Assembly (NCBI RefSeq): GCF_013167455.1
Contig: NZ_CP038328.1
Length of the DNA stretch: 64,000 nt
Direction: 5' to 3' (one strand)
Origin: Escherichia coli O157:H7
Lineage (GTDB): Bacteria; Pseudomonadota; Gammaproteobacteria; Enterobacterales; Enterobacteriaceae
The position numbers were made by a program, and so were the translations under genes. Shown piece by piece: positions 36,897-37,674 of the stretch (its first letter is position 1; each line of letters starts with the position of its first letter). Below the pieces are notes generated by a model. It was not told the origin of the DNA and searched no databases. It saw only the letters and a list, made by a program, of their open reading frames with translations.

Positions 36897-37359
36897 TGTT
36901 TTGTTACGAAGGTGTTACTGGTAACGTTAAGGTAATTTAACAAAGAGTCAGTTCCGGACTTTATAGTGTGCTCAGTTCATGGCCAAAAACGATTTCTGTG
37001 ATAAATATTTTGAATATTATTTACAGGTAAATGGAGTGGGGCACATGGATAGAAATATTACAATAGAGTATGAAGTATATGCCCGTATTGTATGGGCAGA
37101 GAAGGCAAAAACATGGTAATTCCGTGTGTTGCCATGATACCTGATTGGCAGAATTGTTGTTTGGTTTTGAGTATATAGTCAGCGTCTTTTGTTCGGTAAT
37201 TGCTCTTTCAATTAAAATGCCAGATATGATTTGCTTTTCTTTGTTGTTTAGTTTTTTTGTATATTATTTTTATTGTTTTTATATAATTAGTTTTTTATTG
37301 TTGTCTTATTAAGGACGGTAAATTCAGGATGGCAGTCTGTAGATAAACGGAGGTTACTT

Positions 37360-37674
37360 ATGCTACATGATCACCTGGCAGAATGTCTGGAGAAAAAAGG
37401 ACTGTACCGGAGAGCAGCTGAACGATGGGCAAAAGTGATGGTACAGCTAAGTGATGACCAGAAAAGAAAAGTGGCGGCACAGAAACGAGCAGAGTGTTTG
37501 CGTAAGGCGCGCCGGACTCCGGTTTCACCGGTGAACCTGACCGAAATAAAACAAGCGGTCAACAGACTACATTCTGAGTTGGGAATGGGATTTGAAGAGC
37601 GGCGGGTATTCCGACGATATAAAGGGACAGGAGAACAGAATACGTCCGGAAACGCGCGGTCAAAAAAATGCTAA
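37360..37674 (+). CDS. PerC-family (Pch-like) transcriptional activator
   Basis: 104-aa basic protein with LEKKGLYRRAAERW motif recalled from PerC/Pch proteins; preceded by about 450 bp of AT-rich DNA. Confidence 0.45.
   Translation: MLHDHLAECLEKKGLYRRAAERWAKVMVQLSDDQKRKVAAQKRAECLRKARRTPVSPVNLTEIKQAVNRLHSELGMGFEERRVFRRYKGTGEQNTSGNARSKKC

Follow-up and report, generated by a model that had tools for sequence, protein, structure and literature searches.

The founding member of the PerC family is EPEC PerC, an 89-aa protein borne on the EAF plasmid (pMAR7), whose gene is the third of perABC and follows the one for AraC-type PerA. Both EPEC PerC and the prophage-encoded PchB of EHEC activate ler/LEE1 (PMC4456613). 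Full LEE expression and adherence need PchA, PchB and PchC, a finding credited to Iyoda & Watanabe (2004) by PMC4456613 and PMC6265319. When five Pch proteins were compared, ler::lacZ activation was highest with PchB (12,513 vs 1,577 Miller units; PMC5931665). PchD, PchE and the K-12 protein YfdN are prophage PerC-family proteins as well, but show little or no ler activation; PchE represses csgD/curli (PMC6265319, PMC5931665).

Concerning the mechanism, Pch relieves silencing by H-NS/StpA/Hha/YdgT at LEE1 both in vivo and in vitro, which was demonstrated using PchA (PMC4764244). PchB activates the LEE1/ler promoter and thereby, via Ler, the type III secretion island of the LEE in its entirety. 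It would do so by the same kind of anti-silencing, lowering the H-NS/StpA occupancy at LEE1. The documented link to H-NS concerns this target promoter and not the own promoter of a pch regulator. PchA/B/C are prophage-encoded master switches by which gut signals (butyrate via Lrp, nitrogen status, oxygen via DicF, and LrhA) reach Ler and, in EHEC, the type III secretion system of the LEE. pchB is a medically important gene, and it has been characterised since 2004.

A second related system is defined by its position. Lambda bor is a lysogen-expressed moron with its own regulatory DNA and terminator, located between the lysis cassette and cos and transcribed opposite to the late operon. In phage Min27, a Bor-like gene is annotated beside Rz.

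Here, we compare these systems with a PerC-like gene found in a 64-kb stretch of DNA, which we refer to as the window (64,000 nt in full). Since the copy is identical to the reference pchB, the locus provides no new biology. Our additions are modest and descriptive, i.e., we define precisely where the cassette begins and ends, divide its upstream spacer into a conserved and a hypervariable part, and report its prevalence and the co-residence of dicF. The roles discussed for the distal block and the allele-specific patch of the spacer are refinements of a known system. Coordinates of all features are listed in Table 1.

Table 1. Features of the pchB cassette and of the prophage around it, in window coordinates.
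Feature	Position	Strand	Description and basis
dicF sRNA gene	20682..20733	-	Rfam RF00039, 76.7 bits vs gathering score 48, E = 3.6e-15
Rz spanin gene	36438..36896	+	last lysis gene; RefSeq 'lysis protein' at identical loci
Rz1	36649-36834		embedded in Rz; ORF listing
Distal upstream block	36897..37190	+	294 bp; ~36% GC; pch-linked; stable predicted fold
Promoter-proximal patch	37191..37320	+	130 bp; core 21.5% GC; hypervariable, pchB-type vs pchA/C-type; presumed site of own promoter and allele-specific regulation
Leader	37321..37359	+	fairly conserved; Shine-Dalgarno (SD) GGAGG at 37349-37353
pchB CDS	37360..37674	+	PerC-family transcriptional activator of ler/LEE1; PF06069, PHROG 994, identity to ECs_2182
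Predicted anti-SD and DicF-complementary stretch	37440..37463 (anti-SD 37447-37459)	+	inside CDS; identical in pchA, pchB and pchC
Hairpin	37711..37737		10-bp perfect arms AAAAAGCGAC / GTCGCTTTTT; inverted repeat and centroid fold
YlcI/YnfO-family gene	37756..37980	-	NCBIfam NF041551, E = 1.5e-8; RefSeq annotation
cos site	38180..38224	+	exact string match to lambda left-end sequence GGGCGGCGACCTCGCGGG...
nu1	38367-38912		ORF listing, RefSeq annotation

Identity of the gene and its place in the prophage

The ORF starts with ATG and encodes 104 aa. Its product is strongly basic (pI 10.33, 25 K+R vs 12 D+E) and carries the motif LEKKGLYRRAAERW at residues 10-23, so the small basic protein with such a motif that the original prediction had described is indeed encoded here. 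That prediction further read the protein as a PerC/Pch-type activator and named a PerC HMM search as one check. This search returns Pfam PerC (PF06069) with an i-Evalue of 6.2e-44 and a score of 148.6, aligning residues 1-89 to positions 1-89 of the 90-position model, i.e., to nearly the whole of it. PHROG 994 also matches the protein (E = 1.7e-45), while an NCBIfam search with it gave no family assignment. No relative has a solved structure. At identical loci, RefSeq/PGAP names the gene 'PerC family transcriptional regulator' or 'PchABC family transcriptional regulator, pchB', and the ORF and PchB of strain Sakai share one protein accession (WP_001302717.1).

For the assignment to an allele, we retrieved the group 1 pch loci of Sakai (pchA, pchB, pchC) and aligned them to the window. 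Over the interval between the Rz stop and nu1, it shows 100% nucleotide identity to the locus of Sakai pchB (ECs_2182, prophage Sp11). CDS positions 16, 172 and 183 have been used to separate the three genes (PMC5931665); pchA differs at position 16 and pchC at positions 172 and 183, and the window has the pchB signature. Beside these SNPs, the other features of group 1 Pch membership are found as well, namely a full-length PerC match, a small basic protein and a lambdoid prophage context after the lysis genes. The 778-bp segment made up of spacer and CDS (36897-37674) is 100% identical in hundreds of O157:H7 chromosomes. That is, the ORF is pchB, a known and experimentally characterised gene and not a new one.

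Since EHEC has five pch genes, two of which show little LEE activity (PMC6265319, PMC5931665), the ORF might in principle be an inactive paralogue akin to pchD/pchE that barely affects ler. We give this next to no credence: the sequence is that of group 1 pchB, the strongest ler activator among those tested (PMC5931665), and the identity to pchB together with the published reporter data refutes it. The same reporter values, obtained with an identical CDS, also bear out the link to ler and LEE control that had been anticipated for the gene.

The closest relatives differ from pchB in defined ways. PchA (ECs_1091, Sp4) and PchC (ECs_2737, Sp14) are the same 104-aa protein except for L6V and V58M, respectively. 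Their loci share with pchB the distal upstream block, the leader, the terminator and the place after Rz, but have another allele of the 130-bp patch and differ from pchB in the SD context (37347 and 37355). EPEC PerC belongs to the same Pfam family and shows 47% identity over residues 2-88. Compared to PerC, PchB has a C-terminal extension of 15 aa, and its gene stands alone in the prophage as a moron preceded by AT-rich DNA of its own.

Locally, the genes are arranged as holin, lysozyme, an antirepressor-like gene, Rz/Rz1, pchB, ylcI/ynfO (on the opposite strand), cos, nu1 and A. Given the position of cos, pchB and the right end of the packaged genome are about 500 bp apart. In a blastn comparison with the pch-less Stx1a phage LC567821, homology stops at 36886 and resumes at 37846; spacer, pchB and terminator thus fill the variable slot for cargo that separates the lysis cassette from cos. 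In other words, pchB sits between Rz and ylcI/ynfO as a moron that is co-directed with the late operon. This orientation distinguishes it from lambda bor and makes late read-through possible.

Downstream of the CDS, the convergent pchB and ylcI/ynfO genes are separated by a hairpin with A5 and T5 on its flanks that looks like a bidirectional intrinsic terminator. It was missed by a consensus terminator scan because its T-run belongs to the stem.

As for the wider context, the window runs from chromosomal asr to ynfA, followed by one lambdoid prophage (about 16.5-62 kb) and a truncated ydfJ, so the gene is carried by a prophage, as had been proposed. The late half of this prophage is Sp11-like, while its early half is Sp12-like and contains an 'ECs_2282 family' gene. 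Relative to Sakai PchB, the locus itself, which spans pchB, ylcI/ynfO and cos between the Rz stop and nu1, is the same, but the surrounding prophage differs: Sakai has Sp11 and Sp12 in tandem, and the single prophage found here suggests a recombinant or a collapsed tandem. Across the whole region, strain ERL05-0623 is the best match. Overall, we are highly confident that this is the pchB cassette of an O157:H7-type lambdoid prophage at ydfJ/ynfA with a late region matching Sp11, for which we propose the three routes of expression discussed below.

Composition and anatomy of the upstream spacer

The spacer (36897-37359, 463 bp) opens at the first base past the Rz stop. Its GC content is 33.0% compared to 51.4% for the window, which is the 0.02th percentile among all 463-bp windows; only the region of the nleG effectors, at about 60.7 kb, has an equally low value. 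Within its core (37200-37320), GC drops to 21.5%. The roughly 450 bp of very AT-rich DNA reported upstream of the gene are therefore real. The same region had also been called A-tract-rich, and here only part of the description stands. A/T homopolymer tracts of 4 nt or longer do occur 12 times, but shuffled sequences have 8.7 +/- 2.5 and 13% of them reach 12; within the core, 6 tracts are observed vs 5.6 expected. Furthermore, the T-tracts show no phasing of about 10.5 bp (spacings 17, 15, 9, 15). Given a tract count that matches composition shuffles and the absence of phasing, 'A-tract-rich' says nothing more than 'very AT-rich'.

H-NS is known to prefer AT-rich, horizontally acquired DNA (PMC4764244). 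It might, together with StpA/Hha, coat 36897-37359 and keep pchB off until LrhA, Lrp or LeuO antagonise it or conditions change. Judged from composition, we give silencing of the upstream region by H-NS, an idea raised by the original prediction, about an even chance. In its favour are the 33% GC over 463 bp, tying for the window minimum, and the 21.5% over 120 bp. An indirect hint comes from a synthetic PpchA-pchA-PLEE1-gfp butyrate sensor that responded in an hns deletion host only (PMC7279287), though this effect could arise at PLEE1 instead of PpchA. On the other hand, the A/T tracts neither exceed what composition predicts nor are they helically phased. A search for the high-affinity H-NS motif TCGATAAATT yielded no match within 1 mismatch in the upstream region; at 2 mismatches there are two, where the window-wide count of 67 vs 55 +/- 7.5 expected is at chance level. 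No ChIP or hns-mutant data on pch promoters were found in the literature searched, including the accessible supplements of PMC4764244.

To resolve the anatomy of the spacer, we aligned six alleles, i.e., the window, Sakai pchA, Sakai pchC and three diverged copies. Variable columns make up 5-12% of the distal block and 7% of the CDS, compared to 47% of the patch (37191-37320), which is flanked by sequence conserved at about 90-95%. The patch further contains a direct repeat of TTTTTATTGTT (37267-37284 and 37292-37309, spacing 25 bp). For the distal 264 bp, the set of records with a match (687, from 672 genomes) coincides exactly with that of the full cassette, and identity does not fall below 95% in any of the 1872 copies.

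These data bear on another account, in which the AT-richness is a mere compositional mark of foreign moron DNA with no silencing role, and pchB expression is set entirely by specific activators and late read-through. In its favour, composition accounts for the tract statistics, and the nleG cargo of the same prophage at 60-62 kb likewise has 33-38% GC. Nevertheless, we consider this account somewhat unlikely, given that the distal 264 bp are so well preserved in 1872 copies while the adjoining patch varies strongly. Conservation right beside such a variable segment suggests that the spacer is not neutral filler.

The distal block could serve in upstream regulation or form part of a long leader. 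Alternatively, it might encode a separate product, be it a structured RNA from the + strand or a 46-aa protein from an ORF at 36979-37119 (orf46). The block is strictly pch-linked and highly conserved, and its + strand folds with an MFE of -78 kcal/mol (z = -2.98), matched by only 1/200 shuffles; the respective z for the - strand is -1.36. Moreover, orf46 is open in 6/6 alleles. Against a separate product, we found no compensatory pairs for the fold among the six alleles (0, where the covariation test is without power and speaks neither for nor against the structure), and an Rfam search of 36000-39000 with permissive E-values and gathering scores returned nothing credible. PGAP annotates nothing within the block, and its strong conservation may just reflect a recent spread of the cassette. 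Substitutions in orf46 are all non-synonymous and the ORF lacks an SD, so that we rejected it as a gene. Taken together, a separate product of the distal block appears quite improbable to us. Another ORF of the spacer, orf55, was discarded as a gene as well, given stop codons in 5/6 alleles.

Proposed routes of pchB expression

The first proposed route operates in the lysogen, where pchB would be transcribed from its own promoter within the AT-rich patch. We infer this placement, since a sigma-70 consensus scan of 36897-37359 found no promoter. LrhA (for pchA and pchB) and Lrp with butyrate (for pchA) would act there. According to Honda et al. (2009), as covered by PMC4456613 and PMC13012123, pchA and pchB are activated differentially by LrhA, and Lrp with butyrate acts at the pchA promoter (PMC4456613). 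The reported difference in regulation between pchA and pchB is likely due to the pchB-specific sequence of the patch.

Upon prophage induction, Q-antiterminated read-through from the late promoter would transcribe pchB as a second route. Such read-through is to be expected because pchB and the lysis genes share one orientation and the consensus scan detected no terminator-like site between Rz and pchB (36800-37360, + strand). An SOS-inducing drug induced the group 1 pch genes after 12 h (PMC5931665). This delay fits late read-through, though pchB itself missed significance in that experiment (log2 1.74, P = 0.09), which was reached for pchC only (PMC5931665). A different arrangement is seen in Sakai Sp4: there, a segment with pchA and lysis genes (22131-29827 of the retrieved locus) is inverted with respect to the remainder of Sp4 and bracketed by IS629 and ISEc8, which uncouples pchA from the late operon.

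The third route concerns translation. For pchA, translation is reported to be blocked by an anti-SD sequence within the CDS and released by the sRNA DicF (PMC7769764). We propose that pchB translation may be held back likewise, with the SD/start region paired to an internal anti-SD of the CDS, and that DicF encoded by the same prophage would free it. The SD of pchB is located 6 nt before the ATG. In six full-length folds, pairing of 37349-37362 with 37447-37459 is predicted with a probability of about 0.75, while it is absent in folds ending at 37560. The corresponding duplex has an energy of -14.2 kcal/mol vs -15.9 to -16.8 kcal/mol for duplexes of the SD with other CDS segments.

With regard to DicF, RNAduplex predictions for the full-length sRNA were unspecific, since 12/200 shuffled mRNAs did equally well. 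We thus tested the 5' end of DicF locally instead, with a window-wide control. Here, DicF nt 1-24 and 37440-37463 form a duplex of -24.0 kcal/mol that includes the perfect 7-mer ACCAGAA/UUCUGGU. Among 31,982 window segments, this energy is only in the top 0.8% (z about -2.7). Folding and duplex results for pchB are therefore consistent with the published DicF model, whose experiments concern pchA, but are not proof of it.

The dicF gene adjoins dicB in the early region of the prophage that carries pchB, such that the regulator and its likely target move on a single element. One may go further and regard the pch cassette as more than a promoter plus a gene. In such a scheme, the distal block would act as a long leader with a defined structure or as a regulatory RNA in its own right, the patch as an exchangeable module that gives each copy its own input, and the cassette would form with dicF a self-contained sRNA-target virulence switch. 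We consider this extended scheme improbable.

Distribution of the cassette and further prophage content

The pch cassette is present in 672/5426 complete E. coli genomes (12%) with 1-5 copies each (median 3). Carriers comprise O157:H7, O55:H7, O111, O103 and O145, and include isolates from dog, pig, chicken, monkey and giant panda. Among 1877 cassette copies, 15 are plasmid-borne. On the 101-kb plasmid NZ_CP027545.1 (3463-3776), a frameshifted pch cassette is accompanied by lysis-gene remnants, an nleH pseudogene and IS elements. In the phage collection (50,697 records), group 1 pch was found in one 1.5-kb fragment only. Since this collection is essentially devoid of group 1 pch, related loci were taken from E. 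coli genomes.

Beside pchB, the prophage harbours further LEE-related cargo, i.e., three genes of nleG-family T3SS effectors at its end (59700-61900, 33-38% GC). It also encodes two toxin-antitoxin modules, namely type I sok/hokD (27579-27903, +) and type II relBE (22018-22489, -). Three tRNA genes (Ile, Arg, Arg; 30669-30918, +) are located downstream of the Q antiterminator gene, as in Stx-type phages. Downstream of Q and this tRNA cluster, an STnc100-family sRNA match (31692-31864, +; 101.8 bits) lies between a DUF3927 gene and a large SASA-family esterase gene. Finally, the stretch between cos and nu1 contains repeats with CATGTCGG (38218-38342), namely a direct repeat spaced 100 bp and an inverted repeat of 25 nt (38288-38342). 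The small terminase subunit probably binds to these repeats (cosB), which gave rise to spurious microRNA matches in Rfam.
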